Assembly (NCBI GenBank): GCA_964398185.1
Contig: CAYNML010000003.1
Span: 16,303-80,302 of the forward strand
Length of the DNA: 64,000 nucleotides
Direction of reading: 5' to 3'
Source of the DNA: an uncultured Anaerolineae bacterium
GTDB lineage: Bacteria > Chloroflexota > Anaerolineae > Fen-1058
A program made the position numbers and the translations under genes. This document shows, in pieces, positions 1 through 47,922 of this stretch. The first letter of the stretch is position 1; the number at the start of each line of letters is the position of its first letter. The notes under the pieces were generated by a model. It worked only from the letters and a program-made list of their open reading frames with translations. It was not told the DNA's origin and made no database searches.

Positions 1-45
1 ATTCCCGCCGTTACGCCTTACGTTTTACGCCTTACGTTTTAGTCT
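1..45. repeat. partial arm of an iterated-word palindrome (TTACGCCTTACGTTTTACGCCTTACG), same word family as the element at 8763-8830
   Basis: It nearly matches the right arm TTACGCATTACGTTTTACGCATTACG at 8800-8827. The window starts inside it. It may instead be coding, because frame 0 is open through it. Confidence 0.4.
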
Positions 46-95
46 TCGTACCTGCTCTGCTGATCGGCGCAGTCTGGTGGCTGCGCAACCTCAGC

Positions 96-698
96 GTGTA
101 TGGCGGCTTCGATGTGCTGGGCTTGGCGCGGCACAATGCCATCGTCGTCGGGCAGCCGACGACCGCGCAGTGGCTGATCGATTACGGCGCAAGTGGTCTC
201 TTGCAGCGCTTCTTTACCACCACCTATCGATCGTTCTGGGGGCAGTTCGGTTGGATGTCCACGCCTCTGCCCGATCGAGATTACCTGCTGCTTGGCGGGT
301 TGAGCATCGTCGCGTTGATCGGTTGGGTGTGGTGGCTGGCTGCAAAAAGAAAGTCGCCGAAGTCAACACAACAACCGTATGGTGGTTTACTGCTGTCATT
401 GTTGTTTGTGCTCACCGTCGGTGGTTATCTGTACTACAACGTGACCTTTGTGCAGCATCAGGGACGTTATCTCTTTCCGGCGCTGATCCCGATCGGGCTG
501 GCGTTCGCGATCGGGTGGTGGCAGGTGCTGGATAAGATCAAGAGCCTGATGGCGCGACCACTCGCGCGATCAACACGCGACTGGACGCCGTGGCTCGATC
601 AGGCGCAGTTGATCATCTTCGCTTTGATCTTCATTTACCTGGCGCGGCTCGATCTCGTCGCTTTGCAGCGTTACATTGTCCCATCTCTGTCGCCGTGA
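96..698 (+). CDS. polytopic membrane protein resembling the C-terminal TM region of a GT-C glycosyltransferase; it may be a 5'-partial gene continuing upstream of the window (frame open to position 1)
   Basis: GTG start at 96 with no SD. The translation is hydrophobic and W/F/L-rich. Its stop TGA (696-698) overlaps the ATG of the downstream GT39 gene (ATGA coupling). Confidence 0.5.
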   Translation: MYGGFDVLGLARHNAIVVGQPTTAQWLIDYGASGLLQRFFTTTYRSFWGQFGWMSTPLPDRDYLLLGGLSIVALIGWVWWLAAKRKSPKSTQQPYGGLLLSLLFVLTVGGYLYYNVTFVQHQGRYLFPALIPIGLAFAIGWWQVLDKIKSLMARPLARSTRDWTPWLDQAQLIIFALIFIYLARLDLVALQRYIVPSLSP

Positions 699-2659
699 TG
701 CGCTCCTTCCCTCATTCTCTCCGCCTCAAGATGAAACGCTGGCTCCCCATTCTTCTCATACTGTTTCTGGCCGCGCTGCTGCGCCTCGTGGCGCTGCCCG
801 GTGTGCCGCCCGGCCTGCAGCACGACGAGGTCTTTCACGGCCACGATGCGGTGACAGTGCTGCTGGGCTACCGCCCGCTGTACTTCACCTCGAACGCGGG
901 TAACGAGCCGCTCTTCATTTACCTGATGTCGCTGACGGTGGGCGTGTTCGGGCACAATGCGTGGGGCATCCGTTTGGCCGCCGTGATCTGCGGCTTGCTC
1001 ACCGTGCTCTTCACGTATCTGTGGATTCGACGCGCTTATAACGATCGTGCAGCGTTGATCGCCTCGGCGTTGCTGGCCGTGAGTTTCTGGCCGATCTTCC
1101 TGAGCCGCGTGGGACTGCGCGCCGCTTCTGTGCCGCTGATGGCGGCGCTCTCGGCATGGTTGTTGTTTGAAGCATTGCAGCGCCAGCAGCGACGCTGGTT
1201 TGTGCTGGCGGGCATTGCGCTGGGCGTGGCGCTGTACACCTATCCCGCCGCGCGCACGCTGCCCATCGTTTACGTTTTATTCTTTACGTTTTACTCTTTG
1301 CTGATTCGAAAACTGGATCGTTCACTCCTCATCACACTCGTGACCGCGCTCATCGTCGTGACGCCGCTGGCATACACCATCACCACGCTGCCGGAAGCCG
1401 ATGTGCGGTTGCAGCAGCTCGGCGGACCGGTGCAGGAGGCGCTCACCGGCAACGTTGAGCCAGTGCTGCGTTACACCGTGGCAACCCTGGGCATGTTCAA
1501 CGTCGCGGGCGATCCGATCGCGCGTTATAACCTGCCGGGGCGACCAGTTTTTGATCTGATCACAGGGATTTTGTTTCTACTCGGATTGCTGATCGCCCTT
1601 CGCCGTTGGCGCGAACCGCGCAACTTCTTCGCGTTGATCTGGCTCCCGATCGGTTTGCTGCCCTCGATGCTCAGCGATTCCGCGCCGTCGTTCCTGCGCG
1701 CCAGCGCCTCATTGCCGGTGGCGTTTTTGTTCCCGGCGCTGGCGCTTGATTGGCTGTTGGCGCGCATCACGCAAAGGCGCAGTCAGCTGATCGGTTATGC
1801 GCTGATCGGCGGTTTGATCGTTTTCACGGGGGCGCTGACCGTCCGCGATTACTTCTTTGTGTGGCCTAATCGATCGGATGTGCGCGAGGTCTATCGTTCT
1901 GATTTGATGGAAGCCGCGCAATGGATCGAAACACAGGCCAGCGCGCAACCGATCGTGGTGGCGGCCACCAATCCGCGCGATCTCGATCCGTTCCTGTTCG
2001 ATTTTCAGCTGACGGGTGATCGGGAAATCAAGTGGATCGATCGGGCGTTTGCCGTGGTCTTTCCCAATCAGCCAGCGAAATTGATCTCGCCCGCCTATTC
2101 GCCAATCGATCCGCAGCTGCGCGATCGGTTTTTGGGACAGCCGTCGTTCGTGGCAAAGTCCGCAGACGGATCGATCGCGTTTGAGGTGTACGATCTCGCG
2201 CCGTACACGCCATCGCCCGCGAACACTACTGCGACAACCGATCGCGCAGGTGAACTGACCGTGCCGATCGATGTGAATCACACACTGGAGTTTCTAGGCT
2301 ACGACGCGCCGTCGCGCACGCAGCCTGGCGAGGTGCTGCCGTTGACGTTGTACTGGCGCGTGAAGCAGGATGTCGCCGCACAGCAATTGCCATTGTCGCT
2401 GTTCGTGCATCTGCTTAACGAACAAGGCGAATTCGTTGCCGGGCGCGATCTGCTGGCCTTTCCCACGGCCGGCTGGCGCGACGGCGATGTGTGGCTTCAG
2501 CAAAATGATGTGCCGCTGCCCGCCGATTTGAAAGCGGGCGCCTATCGCCTGGAAATTGGCGCGTATTCGCAAGCCGACGGATCGCGCTGGCGCGTGGTCG
2601 ATGCGCAGGGGAACGATGCGGGAGATCGGCTGTTGCTGAATGAGATGGAAGTCAAATGA
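698..2659 (+). CDS. glycosyltransferase family 39 (PMT/ArnT-like, PMT_2) membrane protein with a C-terminal soluble domain
   Basis: The N-terminal TM bundle carries the first-loop DE motif (LQHDEVFHG) and PLYFTSNAGNEPLFIYLMSL, typical of GT39/ArnT-like enzymes. The C-terminal ~120 aa (LEFLGYD...FVHLLN...GAYRLEIGAY) is shared with the genes at 24891 and 34419. The longer ORF from 590 was rejected in favour of the ATG at 698 coupled to the upstream stop. Confidence 0.8.
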   Translation: MRSFPHSLRLKMKRWLPILLILFLAALLRLVALPGVPPGLQHDEVFHGHDAVTVLLGYRPLYFTSNAGNEPLFIYLMSLTVGVFGHNAWGIRLAAVICGLLTVLFTYLWIRRAYNDRAALIASALLAVSFWPIFLSRVGLRAASVPLMAALSAWLLFEALQRQQRRWFVLAGIALGVALYTYPAARTLPIVYVLFFTFYSLLIRKLDRSLLITLVTALIVVTPLAYTITTLPEADVRLQQLGGPVQEALTGNVEPVLRYTVATLGMFNVAGDPIARYNLPGRPVFDLITGILFLLGLLIALRRWREPRNFFALIWLPIGLLPSMLSDSAPSFLRASASLPVAFLFPALALDWLLARITQRRSQLIGYALIGGLIVFTGALTVRDYFFVWPNRSDVREVYRSDLMEAAQWIETQASAQPIVVAATNPRDLDPFLFDFQLTGDREIKWIDRAFAVVFPNQPAKLISPAYSPIDPQLRDRFLGQPSFVAKSADGSIAFEVYDLAPYTPSPANTTATTDRAGELTVPIDVNHTLEFLGYDAPSRTQPGEVLPLTLYWRVKQDVAAQQLPLSLFVHLLNEQGEFVAGRDLLAFPTAGWRDGDVWLQQNDVPLPADLKAGAYRLEIGAYSQADGSRWRVVDAQGNDAGDRLLLNEMEVK

Positions 2660-2809: not shown

Positions 2810-3376
2810 CTACTTCCGCGCAAATATTTTCGCCACTATGCCGACAATCACATACAACAACCCCAGCCCAATCAACCCGAACTTGATCGTCGCGCAGATC
2901 TGCGCAATCTGCGGATAAGGCGCGACATTGTTGCCGAGCAGTACAGTGAACAACGCTAGGTTCTCGATCGCGTCAAAGATGGCCGCAAGCCACAAGCCCC
3001 ACGCCAGCAGCACGCCGCTGCTGTGCCACGTCTTGTGCCGCAGCGCAGTGGCCGCCAGGAGGCACGCCAAAGCGATCGTGGTGGAGTACACCGGCATGTA
3101 CAGATAATCGAAGCCGAGGCTGAACCCCGCGCGGATGCGATCGGTGTCAGTCCACGCGTCGATGATCGCCTGCGCGTTGTCCACGCTGCCCGCCAGTTCG
3201 AAATCGACGATGGTGGGCGTCCCACCTTCGGTGGGCGTCCCACCTTCGGTGGGCTGCGCCGGGCCGATGAAGCGGAACGCGAACGTGATCAGCAGCGTGG
3301 CGACGAGCAGTGGTACAAACACGCGCACGCGCTGGTCTGACGGAAGGGCGTTGAGCGGATGAGTGAGTCGGGTCAT
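2810..3376 (-). CDS. hypothetical small membrane protein with a tandem PTEGGT repeat
   Basis: Hydrophobic ORF. The ATG at 3376 overlaps the TGA stop of the upstream radical SAM gene (ATGA), so the two are translationally coupled. The longer ORF to 3397 was rejected. Confidence 0.55.
   Translation of the reverse strand: MTRLTHPLNALPSDQRVRVFVPLLVATLLITFAFRFIGPAQPTEGGTPTEGGTPTIVDFELAGSVDNAQAIIDAWTDTDRIRAGFSLGFDYLYMPVYSTTIALACLLAATALRHKTWHSSGVLLAWGLWLAAIFDAIENLALFTVLLGNNVAPYPQIAQICATIKFGLIGLGLLYVIVGIVAKIFARK
3213..3254. repeat. 2.3 copies of the 18-nt direct repeat GTGGGCGTCCCACCTTCG inside the CDS (encodes PTEGGTPTEGGT)
   Basis: direct inspection; each unit is itself internally palindromic (GGTGGG..CCCACC). 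Confidence 0.7.
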
Positions 3377-4860
3377 GATTGGACGTGATGTTCGCACACC
3401 GTGCGGAAGTGATAGCCGTAAATCGCCAGCGTGACCGCCATCGTGATCAGCTTGGGCCGATGAAACAGCGTCCAGAAGAATAACTTCCAGTATTGCACCC
3501 GCTCGCGGCCGATGATGCCCAGGCGCACGATCGAGCGGAAGAAAGCCATCAATTGCTGGAAGTTCGGCGCAGCGCGCACGACTTGCGTCGGCTGATATTC
3601 CTGCAAGAAGGTCTTGACGCGCTGATAATAGTGGCGCGGCGTGTAGAGGTGCTGCAGGATGTGTTGATAACCTGCGCGCAGCGTTTCCAGATTCATGCGC
3701 GGAATGATGTTGGTGGTACCGTCCACGTTGTCGCCCGACGATTGTTCGTTGAGACGGCCTTCGCCCTTCAAGCGCTCGTAGAGGCCCGTGCCGGGCGGCG
3801 CTTGCAGCAGGCCCACCATCGCCGTGACGATGCCGCTCTTCTGAATGAAATCGATCTGCCGCTGGAAGATGGACGGCGTATCGCTGTCAAAGCCGACGAT
3901 GAACCCGGCCTGCACCTGGATGCCCGCGCGCTGAATGCGCTTCACGTCTTCCACCAGATCGCGCTTGAGGTTCTGCTTCTTGCTGCATTCGGCCAGGCCC
4001 GATTCGTCGGGCGTTTCGATGCCGATGAAGACCACGGTGAACCCGGCGGCCGCCATCAGCTGCAATAGCTCGTCGTCGTCGGCCATGTTGATCGAGGCCT
4101 CGGTCTGGAACGTAATGCCGAGTTTGTCTTTGCGCCATTCGATCAGCGCGGGCAGCAGCTCGGTCTTGAGCAGGCGCTTGTTGCCGATGAGGTTGTCGTC
4201 GACGAACAGGACACTGCTGCGCCAGCCCAGTTCGTACATCCGATCGAGCTCGGCGATGATCTGCGCCACGCGCTTGGTGCGCGGGCGATGGCCCAGCAGC
4301 GCCGTCACATTGCAGAAGTCGCAATTGAAGGGGCAGCCGCGCGAGAACTGGAGGCTCAACAGGGCGTACCGCTTGAGGTCAGCCAGTTCCCACAGCGGGA
4401 TGGGCGTCTGATCCATGTCGGCGAAGTCGGCGGTGGTGTAGGTGTGCTGCGCGCAGCCCTGCGCCAGATCGTTGAGAAAAGCGGGCAGCGTCAACTCGCC
4501 TTCATTTAAGATGAAGTGATCGACGACGTCTTCATACAGCTCCGGCTGCAGGGTGAAGAGCGGCCCGCCCGCCACGACCTTCACGCCCGCGGCGTGGCAG
4601 CGCTCGAGCACTTCCCGCGCCGATTGGCGCTGCACGGCCATGCCGCTGATGAACACGTAGTCGGCCCACGCTAAATCTTCATCACGCAGTTGGCGCGTGT
4701 TAAGATCGACCAGGCGCTTGTTCCACTCCGCGGGCAGCATCGCCGCGACGGTCAACAGGCCCAGCGGCGGCGCGATCGATTTCTTGCGGATGAACTTGAG
4801 GGCATAGCGAAAACTCCAGAAGGTGTCGGGGAACTCGGGATAGATCAACAGGATGTTCAT
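3373..4860 (-). CDS. B12-binding domain-containing radical SAM protein (class B, DUF4070-type C-terminus)
   Basis: N-terminal B12-binding-like region (ILLIYPEFPDTFWSF...PPLGLLTVAA), CxxxCxxC cluster motif (SRGCPFNCDFCNV) and a long C-terminal extension. Confidence 0.85.
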   Translation of the reverse strand: MNILLIYPEFPDTFWSFRYALKFIRKKSIAPPLGLLTVAAMLPAEWNKRLVDLNTRQLRDEDLAWADYVFISGMAVQRQSAREVLERCHAAGVKVVAGGPLFTLQPELYEDVVDHFILNEGELTLPAFLNDLAQGCAQHTYTTADFADMDQTPIPLWELADLKRYALLSLQFSRGCPFNCDFCNVTALLGHRPRTKRVAQIIAELDRMYELGWRSSVLFVDDNLIGNKRLLKTELLPALIEWRKDKLGITFQTEASINMADDDELLQLMAAAGFTVVFIGIETPDESGLAECSKKQNLKRDLVEDVKRIQRAGIQVQAGFIVGFDSDTPSIFQRQIDFIQKSGIVTAMVGLLQAPPGTGLYERLKGEGRLNEQSSGDNVDGTTNIIPRMNLETLRAGYQHILQHLYTPRHYYQRVKTFLQEYQPTQVVRAAPNFQQLMAFFRSIVRLGIIGRERVQYWKLFFWTLFHRPKLITMAVTLAIYGYHFRTVCEHHVQS

Positions 4861-8842: not shown

Positions 8843-9796
8843 ATGCTGGATCTCGCCATCATCATCGTCAACTACAACGTCTGCGATCTGCTCCGCGAGT
8901 GCCTCACGTCCGTCTATGCCAGCACCGGCCTTGCCTTCGCGGTATGCGTCGTCGATAACGCTTCGCCCGATGACAGCGCCGCCATGGTGGCGCGCGAATT
9001 TCCGCAGGCGCACCTCATCCGCAACACGGAGAATATGGGCTACGCGGCAGCGAACAACCTGGGACTGCGCTATTTTGGATTTACCGATCGGGGATCAGAG
9101 ATCTGGTCTCAGGGATCGGACGCTGGCGATCAACCCCACATCCAACATCCGACCTCTAACATCCCCCGCTATGCGCTGCTCTTGAATCCTGATACAGTGG
9201 TGCCGCCCGACGCTTTGGCGCGAATGATCCAGCTCATGGACGATCATCCGGACTTTGGCGTGAGCGGCCCCAAGCTGGTGCGCCGCGACGGCTCGCTCGA
9301 TCTGGCCTGCCGGCGCGGCTTCCCCTCCGTGGAAGTCTCCTTTTGGCGTTTGACGAAATTGAGTAAAATATTCCCCCGCAGCCGGCGCTTCGGACGTTAC
9401 AACATGACCTACCTCGATCCCGATCAACCCGCGGAGATCGATTCCGTGGTGGGCGCATTCATGCTCGTACGGCGCGAGGCAATTGCGCAAGCGGGCCTGC
9501 TGGATGAGATCTTCTGGATGTATGGTGAAGACCTCGATTGGGCGTACCGCATCAAGCAGCGCGGCTGGAAAGTGTACTATTACCCGGCGGTCGTCGTCAC
9601 GCACGTCAAGCGCGCGTCCAGCAGCCAGGACAATGCGGGCGCGGCCAAAGCGCAGTACGAATTCGATCGCGCCATGTGGCTGTTCTATCGCAAGCACTAT
9701 CAGGCCAGCACGCCGCGTCTGGTCGATTGGCTGGTGAAGTTCGGACTGGGCTTGAAGGGCGGCGCGCCGCTGAAAGCTGAGATGAAGCAGAAGTAA
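8843..9796 (+). CDS. glycosyltransferase family 2
   Basis: GT-A fold motifs (IIVNYNVCDLL, VVDNASPDD, NMGYAAANNLG). Confidence 0.8.
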   Translation: MLDLAIIIVNYNVCDLLRECLTSVYASTGLAFAVCVVDNASPDDSAAMVAREFPQAHLIRNTENMGYAAANNLGLRYFGFTDRGSEIWSQGSDAGDQPHIQHPTSNIPRYALLLNPDTVVPPDALARMIQLMDDHPDFGVSGPKLVRRDGSLDLACRRGFPSVEVSFWRLTKLSKIFPRSRRFGRYNMTYLDPDQPAEIDSVVGAFMLVRREAIAQAGLLDEIFWMYGEDLDWAYRIKQRGWKVYYYPAVVVTHVKRASSSQDNAGAAKAQYEFDRAMWLFYRKHYQASTPRLVDWLVKFGLGLKGGAPLKAEMKQK

Positions 9797-11208
9797 TGAA
9801 GAATAGTCGTGTCCGCACGTTATCCACCCTCGCGTTGATCAGCGCCGACACGGTGCTGATCACTGTGGCGTTTCTCATCGCGTACGGCATCCGCTGGGAA
9901 TCGACGCAGCTCGACCCCGGCATCAAGCTGGCCCCGTTCGGCGACTATCTGGGTTTGTTGATCGTCCAGATCGTTGCGATTGTGACAGTGATGTTCTGGG
10001 CGCGGTTGTACCATCAGGCGCGCGCCGTCTCGCGCGTCGACGAGTTTTACGGCGTGTTCGGCGCGGTTTCGATTGGCATGATGATGTCCGTCGCCATCTC
10101 GACGCTGCTCTTCAAGAACCTGGAGTTCGACTTCCCCCGCACGCTCATCATCTATTCGTGGCTGCTGACCATCATCCTGGTCATGGTCGGGCGGCTGGTG
10201 TATCACGCCGTGCAGTGGCGCTTGCAGGCGCGCGGCATGGGCCGCGAAAAAGTGCTCATCGTCGGCACCGGCGACACCGGCAAACTGGTGCTGGAGAAGA
10301 TCAAAGGCTCGCCGCACCTGGGCTATGAGGTGATCGGTTTCGTGCACAAGAACGGCGAGACCGAACCGGACAACGTGCTGGGTGTCCCGGTGCTGGGCAA
10401 TGCCGAAGATCTGCCGCGCCTGATCGACGAACGGCAGATCGACGAAGTGATCATCGCGCTGCCGGAAGCGTCCGACGAAGAAATGCTGGGGCTGATCTCC
10501 AAATGCTCGAAGGCGTCACTCAGCATCAAGGTCTTCCCGGACGTGTTCCAGATCATCGCCACGCAGGTCACCATCGACGATCTGGGCGGGCTGCCGCTGT
10601 TGAGCGTGCGCGATGTGCGCCAACACGGCTGGCGGTTGACGGTGAAGCGCCTCATGGATGTGACGCTCAGCGCGATCGGACTGGTGCTGATCTCGCCGCT
10701 GCTGTTCATCACGGCCATCTTGATCAAACTCGAATCGCCCGGCCCGGCGTTCTACGTGCAGGAGCGCATGGGCCTGGATGCCAAGCCGTTCAAGATGATC
10801 AAACTGCGCTCCATGCGCCAGGACGCCGAAGCCAACGGCCCCGGCTGGACGGTGGAAAACGATCCGCGCCGCACCAAGCTGGGCACGTTTATCCGCAAGA
10901 CCAACGTAGACGAACTGCCGCAGTTGATCAATATTTTGATCGGCGATATGAGCCTGGTCGGGCCGCGTCCCGAGCGCCCGGTCTACGTCGAACAATTCCG
11001 CCGCACCATTCCGCGCTACATGGAGCGTCACAAAGAAAAAGCCGGCCTCACCGGCTGGGCGCAGGTCAACGGCCTGCGCGGCGATACCTCCATCAGCGAA
11101 CGGACCAAGTACGATCTGTGGTATATCGAAAATTGGTCGCTGCTGCTGGACATCAAGATTCTCATCCGCACGGCGCTGCGGATGTTTACCGACAAAAACG
11201 CGTACTAA
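9796..11208 (+). CDS. polyprenyl-phosphate sugar phosphotransferase (WbaP/WcaJ-type bacterial sugar transferase with N-terminal TM/Rossmann region)
   Basis: The C-terminal catalytic domain is conserved (KMIKLRSM, DELPQLINILIGDMSLVGPRPERP, GLTGWAQVNG). The start overlaps the GT2 stop (ATGA). Confidence 0.85.
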   Translation: MKNSRVRTLSTLALISADTVLITVAFLIAYGIRWESTQLDPGIKLAPFGDYLGLLIVQIVAIVTVMFWARLYHQARAVSRVDEFYGVFGAVSIGMMMSVAISTLLFKNLEFDFPRTLIIYSWLLTIILVMVGRLVYHAVQWRLQARGMGREKVLIVGTGDTGKLVLEKIKGSPHLGYEVIGFVHKNGETEPDNVLGVPVLGNAEDLPRLIDERQIDEVIIALPEASDEEMLGLISKCSKASLSIKVFPDVFQIIATQVTIDDLGGLPLLSVRDVRQHGWRLTVKRLMDVTLSAIGLVLISPLLFITAILIKLESPGPAFYVQERMGLDAKPFKMIKLRSMRQDAEANGPGWTVENDPRRTKLGTFIRKTNVDELPQLINILIGDMSLVGPRPERPVYVEQFRRTIPRYMERHKEKAGLTGWAQVNGLRGDTSISERTKYDLWYIENWSLLLDIKILIRTALRMFTDKNAY

Positions 11209-17797: not shown

Positions 17798-19906
17798 CTA
17801 TTTTCGACGGCGACCGAGCACCAGCACGAGCACGAAGAAGACTACGGCGGCCCCGATCGTGATCGGCAGCACCGGCAGCACCTGGCCGGTGGAGGTTGTG
17901 CCGAAGGGCGGCGGCGTGGGCGTGGGCGTGGGTGACGGCGTGCTCGTGGGTGTGCCCGTGGGCGTGGGCGTGGCCGTGGCCGTGGCCGTGGGCAGCGGAG
18001 TCGGCGTGTGCGTCGGCGTGCCGGTGGGCGCCGGCGTGGGCGTGTGGGTAGGCAGCGCGGGCGTGGCGACAGGCGTCGGGACGACACGGGTATCTGCCAC
18101 GGCCGGGCGAACCGGATCGCCCGGCACGAAAACGTCCAGCAGGCCGTTGGCGATGACGAGACCGTTGTTGGTGCCCAGCTCCAGCACGGCGTTCCGCAGA
18201 TCGAGCGCAAAAACTACGTTCTCGCCCAGCGTCCGTGCGCCATCCCGTGTGATCTCCAGGGCGGTGTCTTGCGTCAGGCCAAAGGCGACCGCGGCCGGAT
18301 CGTTGTAGGCCAGCGAGAACAGCCGCCCCCAGCGATTGTCATTCAGCACCTGCGGCTCGACGGTGATGTCGAGCAGGCCCAGCCCTGCGACGAGGTTGGT
18401 CGTGCCCTGCAAGAACGATTTCTGCACGGCAAACTCGGCTTCGTCCGGGTCGGCGGGCGTGGGGCTGTGCGCCGAGTACGATCGGCCGACGACGGCCGCG
18501 CCGCCGTTGTCGGCCAGCAGCGGCAAGCCGTTGGCCCACGCGGTCTTGACGGCTTCCAATCGGCTGACTTCCACCTTCGATTGATCTTTGGCGATCAAGA
18601 GCAGGCCCGTTACATCGGCCGGGATGGTCAGCGCTTCATCCTGATCGAGGACGACGGCGATTTGCGAAGGTGCGCCCAGCGCGGCCGCATATTGGTCGGC
18701 CATGACCTGCGCCGAACTTTGTGAAGGGAAGCCAGCGGCCACGATCAAGATTTTGGCTTGGTCGCCGCCGGCCAGCTTGACAAAGCGCTTGAAGATGGCG
18801 TTGTCGTCCAGCGACTCGCTGAGATCGCCGGCCAGGATCAGCGGCCCGGCGCGGCGGGGCAGGGTCAACGCCCGGAAGTCGCGCGCGATTCTGGTGCGGG
18901 GCGGCTGGGCCTTGTTTCCGATCGACATCACGCGCTTATCCAGATCATACGTGAACTGGCCGGGCGCCAACAACTGCACCAGCACGTTGCGCAGGCGCAG
19001 TAGATTGTTTGGCGACGAGTACGTCACGCCGTCGGCCGCGTGGTACGTTTCTGCATCGAGAATGGTGGTGGTGTACAGACCAAAGACGTCCTGCAGTTGG
19101 GTCTCGTCGTAGACATTGACGCCGGTGTAGGCGTCGACGCCGATGCCGACGTGCGGCACATCGGCGCGCGTGACGGCATTAAGCAGGCGGCCCAACCGGT
19201 TGAGCTGGAAAAAGTGTTGATCGAGAATGGCATCCTTGATCGAAAAGAGCAGGCCGTGTTGTTCGGGTGTGTTCCACACTTCGCTGGCCTTGAATTGCAG
19301 GGAGTTGGCGGCCTCAAAGCCCGGCCTGTAGCCGGCCAGCATGGCCGCCGATTGGATGCCGCCGCCGCCGCTGGTGCCCGCCACGATAACGCCGTTTTCG
19401 TACGAGGTGGTCAGCGCCTGCTCCAGCGGCGTGCCGCTCAAGACTTCCATGGCCACCGTTTGATCGCCGCCCAGCACAAAGATGGCGGACAGATCGTTGG
19501 CGAAGTATTTCAGCGACTTGGGATCAGCCGCGTCGCTGCGGGTGAAGATGGGCGCCAGGGTGGCGGTGCAGGTGTAGTCTGCCGGGGCGGCGCGCTTGCA
19601 GGCTTCTTCAATCTGGAAACGGCGCTCTTCGGCGGCGCTCAAATAGGCGGCGCGCTCAGCGCCGCTGATGGTTTGGGCGTTGGCGGCGGACGCCACCGGC
19701 AGCACCAGAATGTTGACCTGTTTGTCTTTGGCGTTGGCCACGGCTTCTTTGGAGAAGCCGGCATAGATATCGGAGTAACCACCGCCGATGGGGATGAGGT
19801 GCTCGATCGGTTGGGGTTGGGCCGCCGTGGGCAGCCCGCTGACGAACACGCCAAGGATGATCACTACAATCGCCAGGAGTCGCAACAATCGATAGGATCG
19901 GGACAT
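17798..19906 (-). CDS. secreted, membrane-anchored protein with two peptidase S51 (cyanophycinase/dipeptidase E-like) domains, a PT-rich linker and a C-terminal TM + RRRK tail
   Basis: Signal-peptide-like N-terminus after the ATG at 19906 (GAGG SD). Two class-I glutamine-amidotransferase-like S51 repeats (VLPVASA...GTSGGGG; ILIVAAGFPSQ...). C-terminal PTPTPT linker and hydrophobic anchor. Confidence 0.6.
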   Translation of the reverse strand: MSRSYRLLRLLAIVVIILGVFVSGLPTAAQPQPIEHLIPIGGGYSDIYAGFSKEAVANAKDKQVNILVLPVASAANAQTISGAERAAYLSAAEERRFQIEEACKRAAPADYTCTATLAPIFTRSDAADPKSLKYFANDLSAIFVLGGDQTVAMEVLSGTPLEQALTTSYENGVIVAGTSGGGGIQSAAMLAGYRPGFEAANSLQFKASEVWNTPEQHGLLFSIKDAILDQHFFQLNRLGRLLNAVTRADVPHVGIGVDAYTGVNVYDETQLQDVFGLYTTTILDAETYHAADGVTYSSPNNLLRLRNVLVQLLAPGQFTYDLDKRVMSIGNKAQPPRTRIARDFRALTLPRRAGPLILAGDLSESLDDNAIFKRFVKLAGGDQAKILIVAAGFPSQSSAQVMADQYAAALGAPSQIAVVLDQDEALTIPADVTGLLLIAKDQSKVEVSRLEAVKTAWANGLPLLADNGGAAVVGRSYSAHSPTPADPDEAEFAVQKSFLQGTTNLVAGLGLLDITVEPQVLNDNRWGRLFSLAYNDPAAVAFGLTQDTALEITRDGARTLGENVVFALDLRNAVLELGTNNGLVIANGLLDVFVPGDPVRPAVADTRVVPTPVATPALPTHTPTPAPTGTPTHTPTPLPTATATATPTPTGTPTSTPSPTPTPTPPPFGTTSTGQVLPVLPITIGAAVVFFVLVLVLGRRRK
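17885..18075. repeat. low-complexity GGCGTGGGCGTG-type DNA repeats encoding the Pro/Thr linker
   Basis: direct inspection. Confidence 0.6.
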
Positions 19907-20064
19907 GAGAGGGCCTCGCGCACGGAGACAGTCTAATCGAAAGTGGCTGTTTGTCAATTGCCAGTAGTTTGACGAAACCAACTTCATCGGGTACAACCAA
20001 CGTGCGCCCGCACTCGATCGGCTTGCCGCCGGTAGAGTGCGAGTTTTTGTGTGAGGAGTGCCGC

Positions 20065-24890: not shown

Positions 24891-27800
24891 TTATGGCCTG
24901 ATGGCTTCCGTGAGAACCACGCGCTGCTGCGCGGCATCGATCGCGTGTGTGCCGCTGACGGGCAGGCGGCCGGCGGGCTCATACAACCCGATCGCGATGC
25001 GGTATTCACCCGGCGGCACATTCGCCAGCGGAATGAGCAACGTCTCGGTGATCACTTCGTTCGCGATCCAGCGCGAGGTGGGATAGGCGTTGTGGCGCGG
25101 CATGGCGTCCCACTGCGCGACGATGGTCTCGGTGGCCGGATCAAAGATGTGCGCGAAGACTTTGTAGTTGCGGGTGATATCGCGCCGCGCCTGCCACGCC
25201 AGATCGATCTGCAGCGTATCGCCCTCGCGTTTCAGATCGTAACCCAGCAATTGAATCTGATCCCCGAAGACCGCATCGAGCGGCTGAGACATGGTCGGTG
25301 CGTTGAAGTTGCGGGCGGGCGGCTCGATGGCGCGCCACGCGTGCGGATCAAGATGAATGCCGTCGATGGTCGTGCGGCCCACTTCTGCTTGCGAGGCGAC
25401 ACGATAGAGGATCACGTCGAGCGCATAGACTTGATCGCGCGGGAGATCGGCGGGCAGATCGAGTGTGTATGCGTCGTTAAGCGTGCCCGGCTGCCACGCG
25501 CTGGTCGGCTGAAAGCCATAGCCGGGCTGCGTATCGAGTGAAGTCCAGACTTTGCCAGAAGAATCGTGCAGCCGCAGCGAGATGCCGTAGTTCGCATCTG
25601 TCACACCAGAGATCGCCCACTGCAGCAGCACGTCGAGACGATCCAGATCATGCAGTTGCGTTTGCACTGCCGCGAGTCCGATGTTGGGCGTGAGCGATCC
25701 GAATTGGGGTGAGGTGGGCTCGTCGGAATGCTTGATCCAGATCGGCGCGAGGAACTGAGTATCATCGCCTACTTGCACCGACACGTAGTACATGCCGGTG
25801 GGTAAGGCGTAGGGCACATGTAATGTCACTCTGTTCTGCCCGTTCTGTACAGGCGTAACCGTCTGTGTGATCGGACTCGGCCCGCCGAACAGATGCGTGG
25901 ACGGTGCAACGAGCGAGACGGTGGCGCTTACCTCCGCCGACGAAGCAATGCTCCACTCCATGTCTACTTCTACGCTGCCCGTATCTGGCGCAAAGCGTGC
26001 CTCAGACTTCATCAGACTGATGTCGTCACGAAAAGCATAACCGCCCGGATTGTGATGCAGCCACGGCTTGCTGACGAAGTCCATCGTTAGGTCGCGCGCC
26101 TCAGCGGACACCGCATAAACGTGCTGTGCCACGGCGATGAAGAGACCGTATCCAAAAACGATCAACGCGGCCCACCACACATTGCGAGACGGAATCAAAT
26201 GGCGCAGATCAACATCCAGACCGTTCGTGTCACGATAAAAGCGAATCAACAAGAAGACGGTAAGTACCGCCAGTGTGATGAGCGAGACAGCTTCGCCAAC
26301 GGTGCGGAGGAGCGTATTACTCAACCACACGTCGAGACGGTCTCCGCCGTTCCGGGTTACATCCACTTGTACATAGCCCAGATCGGGCGCGGCGCGAGCG
26401 GGTATGTCCGCGCCATTTTGATAAGCCCGCCAGATCGGCCAGTAAATGATCGGCAAATTAAGGGTGGCCGTTTCCGATTGAGTGCGCACGCTCCACGTTT
26501 GCCAAGTGGCGCCCCATTGAGACTGCATGGAATCTACAGAGCCAGCAGAAACGATCGGGCGGAGAAGAATCGCCGTTGGATCGATCAACAGCGGCCCGGT
26601 GTGCGGTCGCGGGATCAGCGTGCGCGGCAGATACTCGGCGCGGATCGTTGTGCCGATGTTGCCGGTGAACGCTTCGTACAGCTGCAACCGTTGGGGCGTG
26701 ATCTCATCCGATCGGATGGGCAAGTAATCGGGGCGCAGGGTGAACAGCATTGACGCGACGAGGATCAATCCAACCGGCACAGCCACACGCGCCGGACGCG
26801 TGACAACCAGCGCTAGATACCCAATCGTCAACGAGGTGAACAACGCCTGAATCGACAGGAAGCGCCACGGGAATTGTGTGTACGATAGCAGCGGCAGCGT
26901 GTCCCACAACGGTTTGGACAACGGCGTGATCATGAACGTGGACAACGCCAGCCCGATCAGCACGAAGAGGCGGAACGAACTTGAATCCGTTTTAACGGAT
27001 TTGTCTTGAGCAGCGACCGAATTCATTCGGTCGCGTTTCCACGTCACGATCAAGGCAATGAGGCCCGCCACTGTCCCGATCGCTTGCACCAGCCCCATCG
27101 CAAACGGCGAATTCGATCCGGGCGCGGTCGTAATCGCGTAGTCGAAGCCGATCGAGTTTTGGATCAGGTTCGCCGCCCGGAAGTGTTCGGCATAGTTGAA
27201 GTAGCCCGTCGTCTGCACAGCGCCGACTTGCGTCAGGCTCGCTTCGCCCAAAGCAGGCAGCCAGAAGAACGCGGACAGCGCGAAGGCAAGCAGAAGTCCA
27301 GCGCCAATGCCAAGGATGGTGCGCCCCACTGGGAAGCTTGGCACTGTTACGTGTTGCGTATTGCGTATTAACCACGCACCACGCACTACGCCATACGTGA
27401 TGACGAACGGCGAGAAGATCAGCGCCGAGATGTTGTGCGTGAGAATCAAGCCGCCGTAAGACAGCGCCAGCAGCGGCCAATTGCGGGCGGAATCAAAGAT
27501 GCGATCGATCGACCACAAGATGAGCGGATAGAAGATGAACGCGTAGAACTCGCTCAGCGAATCGCCGCGCACGTAGACGTTGACCAGGTGAAATGGCGCA
27601 TAGAGGTAAGCGACCGCCGCCAGCCACGCCGCCCAACGAGTAGTGAAATGCCGCCGTGCCCAGCCGTACAGCGCGAAGCCCGCGCACACGAAGCCCAGCG
27701 TCTGCACGATCTTGATCGAGGTGAGCAGATCGAAGCCGAGGAAGTTGAAAATCGCCGCAAAGTAATACGGCAGCGCAGCATAGAAGTTAAAAAAGGGATA

Positions 27801-28058
27801 GCCCAGGCCGTAAGCCGCGTCAGGCATCCACCGCATGGGGAAAACGCCCTCGCGCAGGTTCGCCATCAATTGATGCAAGCGGAAAAACAAGAAGGGACTA
27901 TCGCCGCCGCCGCGCGTATTGACGAGTCCCGGCCCGGTCCACAACGGCAGCGCGGCCAGCAGCGCCGCAAGCAAAAGCGTCAGACCGATCCAGGGGATCG
28001 ATCTGACGCTTGCGCGAAAACCCGATTGAGGTTGTACGGCAGAAGCGGCGTTGGTCAC
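24891..28058 (-). CDS. large polytopic membrane protein, PTPS-related/YfhO-like putative GT-C glycosyltransferase with a C-terminal soluble domain
   Basis: N-terminal motif GGGDSPFLFFRLHQLMANLREGVFPMRWMPDAAYGLGYPFFNFYAALPYY typical of 6-pyruvoyl-tetrahydropterin-synthase-related membrane proteins. More than 12 TM segments. C-terminal domain (QLLGYD...FAHIFD...GEYRIAIGLYE) shared with both GT39 proteins. GTG start. Confidence 0.65.
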   Translation of the reverse strand: MTNAASAVQPQSGFRASVRSIPWIGLTLLLAALLAALPLWTGPGLVNTRGGGDSPFLFFRLHQLMANLREGVFPMRWMPDAAYGLGYPFFNFYAALPYYFAAIFNFLGFDLLTSIKIVQTLGFVCAGFALYGWARRHFTTRWAAWLAAVAYLYAPFHLVNVYVRGDSLSEFYAFIFYPLILWSIDRIFDSARNWPLLALSYGGLILTHNISALIFSPFVITYGVVRGAWLIRNTQHVTVPSFPVGRTILGIGAGLLLAFALSAFFWLPALGEASLTQVGAVQTTGYFNYAEHFRAANLIQNSIGFDYAITTAPGSNSPFAMGLVQAIGTVAGLIALIVTWKRDRMNSVAAQDKSVKTDSSSFRLFVLIGLALSTFMITPLSKPLWDTLPLLSYTQFPWRFLSIQALFTSLTIGYLALVVTRPARVAVPVGLILVASMLFTLRPDYLPIRSDEITPQRLQLYEAFTGNIGTTIRAEYLPRTLIPRPHTGPLLIDPTAILLRPIVSAGSVDSMQSQWGATWQTWSVRTQSETATLNLPIIYWPIWRAYQNGADIPARAAPDLGYVQVDVTRNGGDRLDVWLSNTLLRTVGEAVSLITLAVLTVFLLIRFYRDTNGLDVDLRHLIPSRNVWWAALIVFGYGLFIAVAQHVYAVSAEARDLTMDFVSKPWLHHNPGGYAFRDDISLMKSEARFAPDTGSVEVDMEWSIASSAEVSATVSLVAPSTHLFGGPSPITQTVTPVQNGQNRVTLHVPYALPTGMYYVSVQVGDDTQFLAPIWIKHSDEPTSPQFGSLTPNIGLAAVQTQLHDLDRLDVLLQWAISGVTDANYGISLRLHDSSGKVWTSLDTQPGYGFQPTSAWQPGTLNDAYTLDLPADLPRDQVYALDVILYRVASQAEVGRTTIDGIHLDPHAWRAIEPPARNFNAPTMSQPLDAVFGDQIQLLGYDLKREGDTLQIDLAWQARRDITRNYKVFAHIFDPATETIVAQWDAMPRHNAYPTSRWIANEVITETLLIPLANVPPGEYRIAIGLYEPAGRLPVSGTHAIDAAQQRVVLTEAIRP

Positions 28059-28725: not shown

Positions 28726-30276
28726 TTAGGCGCGCCGGCGCGCGATGACGAAGGCGCCGATGACGCCCGCCGCCAGCAGCAGCACCAATCCGCCGATGCC
28801 GGCCAGAATGCCGCCGATGTTCGATCCTCCGCCCGACGAGCTGCTGGATGATTCGCTGCCGCTGGTCGTGGTGGTGGCGCCTTCACCCGAGCGGCTGCCG
28901 AAGTCGATGCTGACCCTGGCGCCGGCTGACAGGGGCACACTCCACCGCTCGTCCGAGGTGGCCGTGGTATTGGGCGCGGGCTGCACGGCAATGCTGTAGC
29001 TGCCCGGCTTCAAATCACTCAGGCAGTGGGCGTCTGCGGCGTCGGTGGACACGTGCTCGGTCACCGTGGCGCCATCACCATCGATTACGGTGAACGTGGC
29101 GCCAGCGACTGGCCCTTCACCGGGATCGCGCAGCGCATCGGCGTTGACATCTTCATAGGCAAACAGGCACAATGTGGCCAGATTTGACGCGGCTGCTACC
29201 TCTGTCGCCGCTGCCGTCGGGGGCACGGCGGGTTCCGTCTGTGGCGTCGCAGCGACCGGCGCTTGCGGCGTTTCTGCCGACGGCTGTGCGGGGGCCGAGG
29301 TGGCGGTGGGCTGCGGCGCAGCCGTGGGCTGCGGGGCAGTGGAACCCGCGCCGCCTTTGATGATGATCTTCTGCCCGATCGAGAGAATTGACTGCGCGTT
29401 CAAGCCGTTCAACGCGTAGATGGTATCCAACGGCACATTGTATTGGAACGACAGTCCAAACAACGTGTCGCCGGCCACGACCGTATGCACGATGGCGCCG
29501 GTCGCATCGGGTTGTACCGCGGGCTGCGGCGGCGTGGTGGCCTGCGGTTGCGGCTGTGGCTGCGCGGCTGTGGTTGGCTGCGCCGTAGGCTGCGCGCCCA
29601 GAATCACCAGCTCAGCCTGATCCCACCACGCATCCAGGTGGATGGCGCCGGAACCGCGCCAGTCGTTGCGCGTGAACACCACTACCTTGCCAGCGGCCCC
29701 CACGGTGCCTTCCGTGCACAGCTGCCCCCAGGTATCATGTGGATTCCCCGCAGCCGACCACTTGATGTTGGGATTGTCCCAGTTGGCATCCCCCTCCAGA
29801 AAAATACCGACTTGCGAACGGCCATTCATGGCAGTAACTGACGGGTCGCCTTTGCCGTAGTCCCTGTTCTGGGCGTACAGGCGCGAGTGGGCGCAGAAGC
29901 GGACTTGCGACCCGGCCGGGATGCCGCCGACCGCCTGCGACCAACCCCCAATCCACGGGTCATACTGGCGGCCAATATGGGCCGAAGCATCGCCCTCCAG
30001 AACCAGCTCCGGGTACGCTCCAGAAGGATTGGTCTCGGCGCTGAAATCGGGGTTCAGCGCGTACTGCAATTCTGAAGCATTGTTCGGTTTCTCAATGATC
30101 TGGAACCAGCGGCCCCAACCGGTGGGCTGTTTGTTGCTGTCCGTGTAGGGCAGGTTCATGCCCGGATTTTGCAGCAGGTTGCCAGACTGAGCTTGCAAGA
30201 CAGCCGGTGCGACGGCCAGCGCCGCAGCGATCAGCGCCAGCACACTGCCCCAGATGATCAACTTCTTGATGTTCAT
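28726..30276 (-). CDS. surface protein: signal peptide, CBM4/9-like domain, LysM, PT/PQ linker, SdrD-B-like domain, C-terminal TM anchor
   Basis: NLLQNPGMN... start of a CBM_4_9-like beta-sandwich; LysM (IVHTVVAGDTLFGLSFQYNVPLDTIYALNGL); LCLFAYEDVNADALRD...; C-terminal ...ARRRA. Confidence 0.65.
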   Translation of the reverse strand: MNIKKLIIWGSVLALIAAALAVAPAVLQAQSGNLLQNPGMNLPYTDSNKQPTGWGRWFQIIEKPNNASELQYALNPDFSAETNPSGAYPELVLEGDASAHIGRQYDPWIGGWSQAVGGIPAGSQVRFCAHSRLYAQNRDYGKGDPSVTAMNGRSQVGIFLEGDANWDNPNIKWSAAGNPHDTWGQLCTEGTVGAAGKVVVFTRNDWRGSGAIHLDAWWDQAELVILGAQPTAQPTTAAQPQPQPQATTPPQPAVQPDATGAIVHTVVAGDTLFGLSFQYNVPLDTIYALNGLNAQSILSIGQKIIIKGGAGSTAPQPTAAPQPTATSAPAQPSAETPQAPVAATPQTEPAVPPTAAATEVAAASNLATLCLFAYEDVNADALRDPGEGPVAGATFTVIDGDGATVTEHVSTDAADAHCLSDLKPGSYSIAVQPAPNTTATSDERWSVPLSAGARVSIDFGSRSGEGATTTTSGSESSSSSSGGGSNIGGILAGIGGLVLLLAAGVIGAFVIARRRA

Positions 30277-30375
30277 GGTGTTACTTCTCCTTTGGATGTT
30301 AGCCGCAATTATAAACCATTTTGCGCGTGCGTCCGGGGTGGAACCACGGCGGGAAATGACGGGGTGATTGACAGG

Positions 30376-31923
30376 CTACAGCCAGGCATAGCGCCGGCGG
30401 CGGCGCAGCCAGATGACCAGGCCGATCAGCCCGGCGGCGCCCACCAACAGCCCGATCAAGAGTGCCACGTCCTCGATCGGGAAACGGTTCAACGCGGCCC
30501 GATCGATCTGCACACCAAGCGGCACGGCGACGATGGCATCGCTGGGCAGCGAGATGGACCAGCGCAGCTGTTGGGTTGCCACATAACCGATCGGGAGACT
30601 GATCAGCATCCGATAGGTGGTGGCGGGCAAGCCGGTGAAGCACGTCTCATGGCTGGCTGCCTCCAGCTGCGCATCAGCCACCACTTCATCCTGCGCATTC
30701 ACTACCTGCACCTGCAGCCCGGCTACTGGCAGCGGCGTTTCACCGGCCAGGAACAGCCCGTTGGCGTCGCTGTCGGCAAACGTGCGCAGGCAAATCGAGC
30801 CCCGCCCGGATCCGGTGCTGCCGCCGGTCGTCACAAAGGGATTGCCCGTCGATGGCTGAGCGGGGACCTGCGGCTTGGCCTCTGGCAAGGCGATGATCAA
30901 CTCGCGGCCCAACTCAATGCGCGAATCGGGCTTCAAGCCGTTCAGTGCCATGATCTGATCGACCGGCACCCCGTATTGCAGCGCCAGCGCGAACAGCGTG
31001 TCACCCGGCTTGACGATGTGTACAATGCGGCCGCCGTTGCTGGCCGTCGACTTGCTCTCAACTGCCACCATGGCCGGAGCCGGGTTCACAGTCACCGGCG
31101 CGCTGAAGCCGCCGCCCAGCGCAACCAGCTCGGCGTCGTCCAGATACATATCGTTGTGCTGCATGGGATTCTCGGGACGGGAGTAGGTGAACACGGTGAC
31201 CTTATTGGAACGCGCCACGGCCTGCACCTCGTACCGCTCGAACTTGTCGTAGACATCCTTCTCCGCCGACCAGACAACGTCCTTGCTCCACGGATCCGTG
31301 CCCCCCGTCGGATCGATGCCGATCTTCATGTGCATGCCGGTCTGGCCGAAGGAGAAATGCGGATTGGGCTGCAATCCATGCAGCTTGGTGGCCGACCAGG
31401 CGTGCATGTAAATGCTGAAGCGCAGCGCCATGCCGGGGCGCACATTCTCCACCACCTGGTAGACGCCGCCTTCGTGCACGCTCCAGAAGGTGAAGTACTT
31501 TTGCGAGTTCTCGCCGCTGCGGATGCGCGGCGGATCTTGCAGACTGCCGCGGGTGTCCCGGTATTCCGGCATATGCCACGCGACACAACCGTCCGGCGCT
31601 TTAGGGCTGCAGTAGTTGGGGTAAGTCTGATAATAATCCGGGGAGCTGGCATCCTCGTTGGGCGGCTGCCACCACGCCGACCACCCGTCGGCCATCATAA
31701 CGCTTTGCCACGGGCGCGACGGCAGCGGTCCATCACACGGTACGGCAATCCACGGCTTGCCGCCGGGAAAGCTGCAGCGTACTTTGTAGTCGCCTTCAAA
31801 GCCGGGGTTTTCCAGCAAGTTTCCGGACTGGGCATGGAGGCGGGTCAGCGGCAGCCACGCTGCCCCCAGGGCGATGATCAACCCTGCGATTAAGATTTTC
31901 GCCAGCGCCTGCTGCTTCATCAT
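30376..31923 (-). CDS. surface protein paralog: CBM4/9-like, LysM, SdrD-B-like, TM anchor
   Basis: same architecture (NLLENPGFEG; IVHIVKPGDTLFALALQYGVPVDQIMALNGL; ICLRTFADSDANG; ...WLRRRRRYAWL). Start at the MMKQQ signal peptide (31923), not the ORF start at 32145. Confidence 0.65.
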   Translation of the reverse strand: MMKQQALAKILIAGLIIALGAAWLPLTRLHAQSGNLLENPGFEGDYKVRCSFPGGKPWIAVPCDGPLPSRPWQSVMMADGWSAWWQPPNEDASSPDYYQTYPNYCSPKAPDGCVAWHMPEYRDTRGSLQDPPRIRSGENSQKYFTFWSVHEGGVYQVVENVRPGMALRFSIYMHAWSATKLHGLQPNPHFSFGQTGMHMKIGIDPTGGTDPWSKDVVWSAEKDVYDKFERYEVQAVARSNKVTVFTYSRPENPMQHNDMYLDDAELVALGGGFSAPVTVNPAPAMVAVESKSTASNGGRIVHIVKPGDTLFALALQYGVPVDQIMALNGLKPDSRIELGRELIIALPEAKPQVPAQPSTGNPFVTTGGSTGSGRGSICLRTFADSDANGLFLAGETPLPVAGLQVQVVNAQDEVVADAQLEAASHETCFTGLPATTYRMLISLPIGYVATQQLRWSISLPSDAIVAVPLGVQIDRAALNRFPIEDVALLIGLLVGAAGLIGLVIWLRRRRRYAWL

Positions 31924-31958
31924 TTGCCGTTCTCTGATACTTGATCCCCGCACCTTGA

Positions 31959-36464: not shown

Positions 36465-36516
36465 GGTTGTTCTCTTGCCAAAGCGCGAAAAGTATAACAC
36501 AATAGGCCGCACAATT

Positions 36517-36553
36517 CCCTCCCCCGCTTCGATTTTCAGGAGCGGGGGGAGGG
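36517..36553. promoter_or_regulatory. strong GC hairpin CCCTCCCCCGCT-N12-AGCGGGGGGAGGG in the divergent GT39/GT4 promoter region
   Basis: 12/13-bp inverted repeat with one bulge, 30 nt upstream of the GT4 ATG; candidate operator or 5'-UTR structure. Confidence 0.4.
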
Positions 36554-36582
36554 TCGGGGTGGGGGTGAGGTTGCACGTCGTC

Positions 36583-37719: not shown

Positions 37720-37760
37720 AAGCGAAGCACCTGTTACGTTTCACGCAGTACGCTTTACTC
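37703..37760. repeat. iterated-word palindrome (CGTAATGCGTACTGTGTAAAAGCG / CGCTTTAC..GCAGTACG..TTACG) spanning the GT4 stop and the GT4-GT4 spacer
   Basis: the left arm encodes the terminal NVMRTV* of the first GT4 and carries TAA in multiple frames. Confidence 0.6.
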
Positions 37761-37761
37761 T

Positions 37762-37770
37762 TGGTATAAT
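37762..37770 (+). promoter_or_regulatory. extended -10 element TGgTATAAT ending 6 nt before the ATG of the second GT4 (candidate leaderless transcript)
   Basis: perfect TGnTATAAT; no SD between it and the ATG at 37777. Confidence 0.4.
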
Positions 37771-37776
37771 CGCCGC

Positions 37777-38934: not shown

Positions 38935-38971
38935 CGAAGCGGGATTGATCATTGTTCATTGCTCATTGTCT

Positions 38972-47887: not shown

Positions 47888-47922
47888 AAGTCTTCCACCC
47901 ATCCAGCAGTGTATCAAGGCCG

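Follow-up and report, generated by a model that had tools for sequence, protein, structure and literature searches.

Among the closest described systems are two arabinosyltransferases of the GT-C class. EmbC's C-terminal domain is a carbohydrate-binding module (CBM) of the lectin-like kind with essential tryptophans (PMC3044687), and AftD possesses three beta-sandwich CBMs together with one structural beta-sandwich, the sites in CBM1 and CBM3 being made up of Trp and polar residues (bioRxiv 10.1101/2019.12.22.885152). Here we analyzed a stretch of 64,000 nucleotides from contig CAYNML010000003.1 of an uncultured Anaerolineae bacterium of the phylum Chloroflexota (the whole stretch is referred to as the window), in which the products of three genes, A, B and C, are GT-C-type membrane proteins that end in copies of a common beta-sandwich domain.

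Accessory beta-sandwich binders on GT-C enzymes are already known; the domain described here belongs to a large family that has neither a Pfam nor an NCBIfam model. Searches of the literature returned no description of it, and no Pfam or NCBIfam model covered it in the window proteins, in 44 family members (E ≤ 10) or in 30 full-length homologues. On balance we lean toward the view that it is an extracytoplasmic C-terminal immunoglobulin (Ig)-like module whose terminal copy binds an envelope ligand shared by these enzymes. The structural and architectural parts of this view are near certain; binding of a ligand by the terminal copy is a predicted step that we hold with moderate confidence.

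Three membrane proteins share a homologous C-terminal domain

An earlier note on this DNA had placed a representative copy of the domain at positions 2290 to 2656, within gene A. This is the right region, but the start is about 5 nucleotides off and lies in a frame that differs from that of the open reading frame (ORF). The peptide LEFLGYD…SRWRVV corresponds to residues 566 to 670 of the 689-residue product of ORF 590..2659(+), which places it at nucleotides 2285 to 2599; the limits of the complete copy are given in Table 1. As publicly called, gene A starts at M48 of this ORF (nucleotide 731). The counterparts proposed for the other two proteins, QLLGYD…FAHIFD…GEYRIAIGLYEPAGRLPV and LRLLGHS…FVHLLN…LLIELGLYDRATNQRV, were found at the C-termini of B and C, respectively.

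In Smith-Waterman comparisons with shuffled controls, the pairwise scores of the three C-termini lay far beyond chance (z = 15.7 for copy A and B3, the last copy in B; 12.7 for A and copy C; 12.7 for C and B3), and none of 500 shuffles equaled the observed score. As the shuffled sequences never reached these scores, the observation of a shared domain stands. BLASTP aligned A with B3 at E = 1e-08 (29% identity across 126 residues) and gave E = 5e-07 for copy C. An external profile, which contained only non-window proteins and was aligned with the help of a model that the window copies had seeded, scored 117 bits with copy A (E = 1.3e-35), 123.7 bits with B3 (1.5e-37), 85 bits with C (1.3e-25) and 67 bits with B2, the middle copy in B (4.5e-20). 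The z-scores of the three C-termini, external-profile E-values of 1e-25 to 1e-37, 27,484 related clusters and a confident fold model (see below) leave no room for the alternative that the similarity is due to chance or amino acid composition and that no true common domain exists.

Protein B contributed copies that the earlier note had missed, since it contains three tandem copies and not one. B2 was readily related to C and B3 (z = 6.2 to 7.5) and less so to A (z = 3.9). The first copy, B1, begins right after the last transmembrane helix of the protein and has lost the PTxxW loop; its pairwise comparisons were weak (z = 0.1 to 4.2), and the family hidden Markov model gave it an independent E-value of only 2.4. 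A profile of B1 orthologues, on the other hand, matched the family profile with an hhalign probability of 96.8% (E = 2.6e-10, 99 columns). We count B1 as a copy because this profile-profile comparison is significant; the pairwise and hidden Markov model results alone would be insufficient. A six-frame search of the window with the copy profiles revealed no copies beyond those in A, B and C, and the family profiles detected one copy each, and no second one, in A and C.

Table 1. Host genes, domain copies and neighboring features in the window
Feature	Position	Strand	Remarks
Gene A	731..2659	+	GT-C glycosyltransferase (PMT_2 / "family 39"-like), 642 residues; PMT_2 66.9 bits
Gene B	24891..28058	-	GT-C-type membrane protein, 1055 residues, three tandem C-terminal copies; PTPS_related 40.4 bits
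Gene C	34419..36464	-	GT-C glycosyltransferase (PMT_2), 681 residues from M at nucleotide 36464; PMT_2 41.7 bits
Domain copy A	2255..2656	+	134 residues; single, hence terminal copy; eight strands in model
Domain copy B3	24894..25298	-	Residues 921-1055; terminal, canonical copy
Domain copy B2	25299..25715	-	Residues 782-920; internal, diverged; W, D and PTSxW motifs kept
Domain copy B1	25716..26057	-	Residues ~668-781; degenerate first copy
Domain copy C	34422..34868	-	Terminal; short Gly/Pro tail after copy
Fourth GT-C gene, C-terminal membrane part	3..698	+	Frame open at the window's 5' edge
B12-binding radical SAM protein	3373..4860	-	With DUF4070
GT2 gene and Bac_transf gene	8843..11208	+	The second Bac_transf gene
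Peptidase S51-like protein	17798..19996	-	Very long Pro/Thr-rich repeat tail
Three LysM + SdrD_B-like proteins	28726..34268	-	Paralogous, secreted
Two GT4 genes and phosphoglycosyl transferase gene	36445..40396	+	Bac_transf/CoA_binding_3
TadE-like protein	45830..49572	-	Very long Pro/Thr-rich repeat tail
Bacterial alpha-2-macroglobulin	52446..58571	+	2041 residues; Big_5, MG2, bait-region, TED, bMG10

The host proteins are GT-C enzymes

Each of the three hosts matched a GT-C Pfam family above its gathering score (the cut-offs are 26.1 bits for PMT_2 and 26.4 bits for PTPS_related), and protein B also matched YfhO below the YfhO cut-off. A and C are 33% identical over their full length. The product of gene A is identical to P0272, which bears the Joint Genome Institute name Ara4N-transferase-like glycosyltransferase, and one of its closest named relatives, a Thermoflexales protein, is 76% identical to it. 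The residues H30-D31-E32 in the first loop were invariant across 32 homologues of A and C; their context is QHDEVFHG in A and YHDEAYYG in C.

A full-length AlphaFold2 (AF2) model of A (pLDDT 85, pTM 0.78) matched the GT-C fold. The Foldseek matches of this model were AglB (6.7e-10), ArnT (5f15, TMt 0.53), STT3, PglB, EmbA/B/C, ALG9, Pmt4, AftD and AftA. The Pfam scores, the H-D-E motif and the Foldseek matches therefore identify the hosts as GT-C enzymes. Together with the homology of the module, the Pfam matches of all three hosts and the Foldseek matches of A bear out the description of a C-terminal domain shared among GT-C proteins.

Protein A consists of a membrane domain, an alpha/beta extracytoplasmic domain and one C-terminal beta-sandwich, in this order. 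The region from the membrane domain to the sandwich was modeled as mixed alpha/beta and resembles a GT-C soluble domain; C also has an alpha/beta domain ahead of its single copy. The N-terminus is positively charged, and there are about 11 hydrophobic segments by a hydropathy count that is too crude alone to fix the topology. The topology of ArnT, PMT and STT3 would place the C-terminal tail outside the cytoplasm. By analogy with these enzymes, and given a cytoplasmic N-terminus and an odd number of transmembrane segments, the C-terminal tail that carries the domain is presumably extracytoplasmic.

The domain is predicted to be an Ig-like beta-sandwich

The AF2 model of the domain, based on a 44-sequence alignment, was all-beta with eight strands (pLDDT 91.7, pTM 0.82). 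Judged by this model, the domain is near certain to be an Ig-like (E-set type) beta-sandwich, which agrees with the beta-sandwich suggested earlier. The closest solved folds were the Ig-like domains of GH2 glycoside hydrolases and the carbohydrate-binding domain of the O-antigen protein Wzt. The Foldseek ranking for the domain ran NIS1, the Wzt domain (best TM-scores 0.58-0.65), GbpA, NPC2/ML, RhoGDI and CARDB. Since identities were 7-19% in all structural matches, these assign a fold class and not a family.

Searches of the PDB with the sequences of A and B and with the 44-sequence profile returned nothing meaningful. The matches to sandwich families in Pfam (DUF4832, MalQ_N, MG2, NPCBM_assoc and ML) were all sub-threshold (E = 8.5e-05 to 0.03). 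DUF4832 (PF16116) matched 4 of the 44 members with a best E-value of 0.0043 and reached 17.0 bits in one homologue against a cut-off of 29.2, and MG2 scored 23.3 bits against 32.8. The weak likeness to these five families, none of which reached the gathering score, is consistent with a common fold class.

Some of these matches are to lipid-binding sandwiches of the ML/NPC2 or RhoGDI type, and the domain could accordingly bind the polyprenyl tail of the donor or the released carrier lipid, the lipid carrier being the one ligand common to every GT-C enzyme. NPC2, Der p 2 and RhoGDI were matched by Foldseek at E = 4e-05 to 2e-04, but with TM-scores (about 0.5) below those for the Wzt domain, and the Pfam ML domain (PF02221) scored 17.0 and 18.8 bits in two homologues, never reaching its cut-off of 22.7 and leaving the window copies unmatched. 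The conserved residues, moreover, are polar or charged and not the hydrophobics that line a cavity, and a distal place behind up to three sandwiches is unfavorable for contact with a membrane lipid. We therefore regard a lipid-binding role as highly improbable and favor an envelope ligand instead.

A large family at the C-termini of GT-C-type proteins

HMMER, run exhaustively over 1.84 billion cluster representatives, yielded 27,484 proteins at E ≤ 1e-3, of which 18,034 were found at E ≤ 1e-10 and 3,829 at E ≤ 1e-30. The best 150 proteins had 2 to 4 tandem copies (three copies in 140 of the 150), and the last copy ended a median of 1.5 residues before the stop.

We also scanned one genome per species with a four-sequence consensus-like alignment, and this returned 80 loci. 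Nearly all were from Chloroflexota (Anaerolineae, Ardenticatenia, Caldilineae, Thermoflexales, Ktedonobacterales, Chloroflexia and Dehalococcoidales), with a single locus from Methylomirabilota as the exception, although the scan patterns were narrow and the taxonomic picture is therefore biased toward Chloroflexota, the query lineage. The 80 loci contained 132 domain-bearing ORFs, and the domain was C-terminal in all but one. Two or more domain-bearing GT-C genes were present in 39 of the 80 loci, being adjacent and co-oriented most clearly in L009, L010, L011 and L066.

The hosts belonged to PMT_2, PTPS_related, TMEM260-like and DUF2079 when judged by Pfam cut-offs; YfhO, DUF2142 and DUF6541 were matched below cut-off only, and some hosts matched nothing. 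One cluster member is named "Gpi18-like mannosyltransferase" in its source. In the protein from the Methylomirabilota metagenome-assembled genome (L064:2-4396), the terminal sandwich is found together with PMT_2 and a discoidin (F5/8 type C) carbohydrate-binding domain. It is thus near certain that the domain occurs on at least four GT-C-type membrane families, at the extreme C-terminus and in one to several tandem copies.

Domain-bearing GT-C genes also occur in other Chloroflexota as head-to-tail arrays of two or three paralogues, a sign that enzyme and domain have repeatedly been duplicated locally as one unit.

Word-indexed searches with the domain found only products of fewer than 300 residues, mostly gene fragments and none of them assigned to Pfam. 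A stand-alone form of the domain was mostly rejected, as the short matches were largely pieces of frameshifted genes: P0023 is the third piece of a frameshifted orthologue of B, and P0074 and P0076 start at internal Met residues. P0063 (176 residues; L082/L083:4001-4531) has one B3-like copy and is present in two independent assemblies, with no signal peptide and no neighboring GT-C gene; it may be either a gene remnant or a stand-alone form. Fragments of the domain occur in seven short ORFs at another locus (L033, 8.4 kb of contig CAVQSL010000007.1), which looks like two or three GT-C genes broken up by frameshifts in the assembly.

The last copy carries a conserved polar set and a putative binding site

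To describe conservation we number residues as in copy A. Over 372 external instances the most conserved positions were W34 and W74 (98% each), followed by G95, G15, Y97, L112, L32, P70, G77, T71, Y47, Y104, D82, G25, D65 and D55. The last and the middle copies differed markedly at several of these positions among the 150 best matches, which were obtained with a profile of mostly terminal copies. D65 was present in 100% of last copies and 28% of middle copies, Q63 in 96% and 26%, R111 in 99% and 41%, Y104 in 99% and 33%, D82 in 95% and 58%, and E78 in 89% and 53%. T71 (97% and 79%) was better kept in the middle copies, and W74 was found in 100% of both. The conservation of the last copy was alike in PMT_2-like hosts (n = 93), PTPS/YfhO-like hosts (n = 25) and other hosts (n = 32). 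The invariance of the polar set around W74, on catalytic hosts that are unrelated to one another, speaks for a single shared ligand.

Lectin and CBM sites are usually made up in this way, with a Trp amid Gln, Asp, Glu, Arg and Thr in and near a single long loop; CBM1 and CBM3 of AftD are described in such terms, and the essential tryptophans of EmbC agree with them. The putative binding surface of the terminal copy would be built around the long beta5-beta6 loop and comprise Q63-x-D65, P70-T71-x-x-W74, G77-E78, D82 and R111. In a lectin-like mode, this surface could hold an extracytoplasmic ligand common to all these GT-C enzymes, most probably an acceptor glycan or glycoprotein of the cell envelope, and so would keep the enzyme attached to its substrate. 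For the inner copies, which are less conserved, the main role would then be that of spacers or auxiliary binders. A carbohydrate-binding or substrate-recognition role, as was proposed for the segment in A, is plausible by analogy, given the likeness to the Wzt fold, the Trp/Asp/Glu/Gln/Arg residues of the terminal copy and the precedent of Emb and AftD.

One other explanation treats the domain as a spacer with a structural role or as a protein-protein module, acting as a rigid stalk, in oligomerization or in docking to an envelope or acceptor protein without binding sugar. Arrays of one to four Ig-like domains are typical of stalks, AftD too has one purely structural beta-sandwich, and the polar set is lost in the inner copies. 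However, the near-invariant Gln/Asp/Thr/Trp/Glu/Asp/Arg set in the last copy, on unrelated hosts, exceeds what a spacer needs, and no part of the protein comes after the domain, a position at which a stalk with an empty tip would lack an obvious purpose. We consider this explanation unlikely.

Another possibility is that the terminal copy folds back on the catalytic periplasmic domain of its own protein as a lid, as a regulator or to complete the acceptor groove, so that the conserved residues form an intramolecular interface. The pTM of the full-length A model suggests a defined arrangement of the domains, and the soluble domains of AftD are tightly associated with its GT-C soluble domain. 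This interface would nevertheless have to be invariant while the partner surfaces belong to at least four very different GT-C families, and in the three-copy proteins about 280 residues separate the core from the terminal copy. These considerations make a fold-back arrangement quite improbable.

Several observations weigh against ligand binding by the terminal copy. No CBM model in Pfam matched the three window proteins or the 44 members, even at E ≤ 10, and no lectin or Wzt_C sequence model in Pfam matched either. The structural matches are all of the low identity noted above, and Ig-like sandwiches are very common as scaffolds, serving many purposes other than those of lectins. W34 (strand 3) and Y104 (strand 7) are probably the core Trp and Tyr of the Ig-like fold and not ligand contacts, and it is solely from the order of the strands that the conserved residues are taken to lie together on one surface. 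The conservation of the last copies is inflated by the choice of the 150 best matches and by the profile used, and the window copies themselves depart from the conserved set, A having G63 and Q82 and C having L71. Finally, an invariant site on unrelated GT-C hosts could equally be a docking surface for another protein or for the same polypeptide. We nevertheless favor an extracytoplasmic, ligand-binding terminal copy, at the strength given at the outset.

It could be speculated further that the terminal copy founds a new CBM family whose ligand is one specific Chloroflexota envelope glycan, such as a wall or sheath polysaccharide or the glycan of a glycoprotein. The module would then be a shared address tag that brings a greatly enlarged set of at least four different GT-C families, whose genes often lie in tandem, to this one polymer, and the number of inner copies would set the reach from the membrane. 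This extension is tentative, and we find it more doubtful than not.

The window as a cell-envelope glycan neighborhood

The window is chromosomal and contains hrcA-dnaK-dnaJ-prmA, a Mur ligase gene, a MacB-type ABC system, a bacterial alpha-2-macroglobulin and Tad-like pilus genes (Table 1 gives the coordinates of the features discussed here). A fourth GT-C gene, of which the window contains the C-terminal membrane part, lies directly upstream of gene A. Phmmer related it to the transmembrane regions of domain-bearing GT-C hosts (E = 1e-10 to 2e-07), and it ends without a beta-sandwich. Just downstream of A, on the opposite strand, is the gene for the radical SAM protein.

Between B and C are the genes for three paralogous secreted LysM and SdrD_B-like proteins, each of which has low-complexity linkers with much Pro, Ala, Thr and Gln and is anchored in the membrane at its C-terminus. 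The linkage is conserved, as such neighbors also flank a frameshifted orthologue of B in L081, and these proteins are candidates for the acceptor. Pro/Thr-rich tracts are typical O-glycosylation targets of PMT-type enzymes. Very long repeat tails of this kind are found on the peptidase S51-like protein and on the TadE-like protein, whose gene is adjoined by one for a Tad/VWA protein.

Divergent from gene C are two GT4 genes and a Bac_transf/CoA_binding_3 phosphoglycosyl transferase gene, and a GT2 gene is accompanied by a second Bac_transf gene further upstream in the window. The MG domains of the alpha-2-macroglobulin are distant fold relatives of the sandwich and not members of its family. 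Overall, the window is a cell-envelope glycan neighborhood, which agrees with the proposed role of the domain without proving it.

Comparison with known systems

Chloroflexota are abundant in sediments, soils and wastewater; the chemistry of their envelope is poorly known, and they possess many paralogous GT-C enzymes. A named and modeled domain would improve the annotation of tens of thousands of proteins that are labeled "family 39 glycosyltransferase" or "hypothetical". The putative binding site of the terminal copy would offer a handle on a Chloroflexota envelope polymer, and the 135-residue module, once isolated, might serve as a probe or as an affinity reagent. The finding is solid, is of use for annotation and will not surprise a specialist.

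Of the solved structures, the C-terminal carbohydrate-binding domain of Wzt from O-antigen ABC transporters (PDB 2r5o, 6o14, 8dky, 5hno and 7k2t) matched the fold with just 11-18% identity. In Wzt this domain lies in the cytoplasm and is joined to an ABC nucleotide-binding domain, whereas the domain described here is fused to GT-C enzymes and presumably extracytoplasmic. It showed neither the sequence match nor the fusion to an ABC-transporter ATPase that would mark it as a member of the Wzt family. The Ig-like domains of GH2 glycoside hydrolases (7rsk, 5t9a and 6hpd) are alike in fold class only, at 7-10% identity, and they are internal structural parts of soluble hydrolases, unlike the C-terminal GT-C module.

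The PMT/TMTC O-mannosyltransferases have acceptor-recognition domains of the MIR beta-trefoil and TPR types, with MIR inserted in a loop. They follow the same logic, that of a GT-C enzyme with an extra luminal or extracytoplasmic domain for handling the acceptor, and A and C match the PMT and PMT_2 models. On the other hand, the folds are beta-trefoil or TPR in those enzymes and an Ig-like sandwich here, and the loop insertion of MIR contrasts with the C-terminal placement of our domain.

EmbC and AftD, the mycobacterial GT-C arabinosyltransferases, likewise have beta-sandwich modules in the extracytoplasmic part of a GT-C enzyme. In their system several paralogous GT-C enzymes work on one polymer and a conserved Trp with polar residues binds the acceptor glycan, to which we liken the proposed binding of a shared envelope ligand by the terminal copy. 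Emb and AftD were among the fold matches of the full-length A model; their CBMs, however, had no detectable sequence relationship to the domain and were not among its top fold matches at the domain level. The AftD modules also sit between transmembrane segments, while here the modules, all of one repeated family, are arrayed in tandem strictly at the C-terminus, on at least four GT-C families. These comparisons leave established concepts unchanged and extend the principle represented by Emb and AftD, a GT-C enzyme equipped with beta-sandwich acceptor binders, beyond the Actinobacteria.

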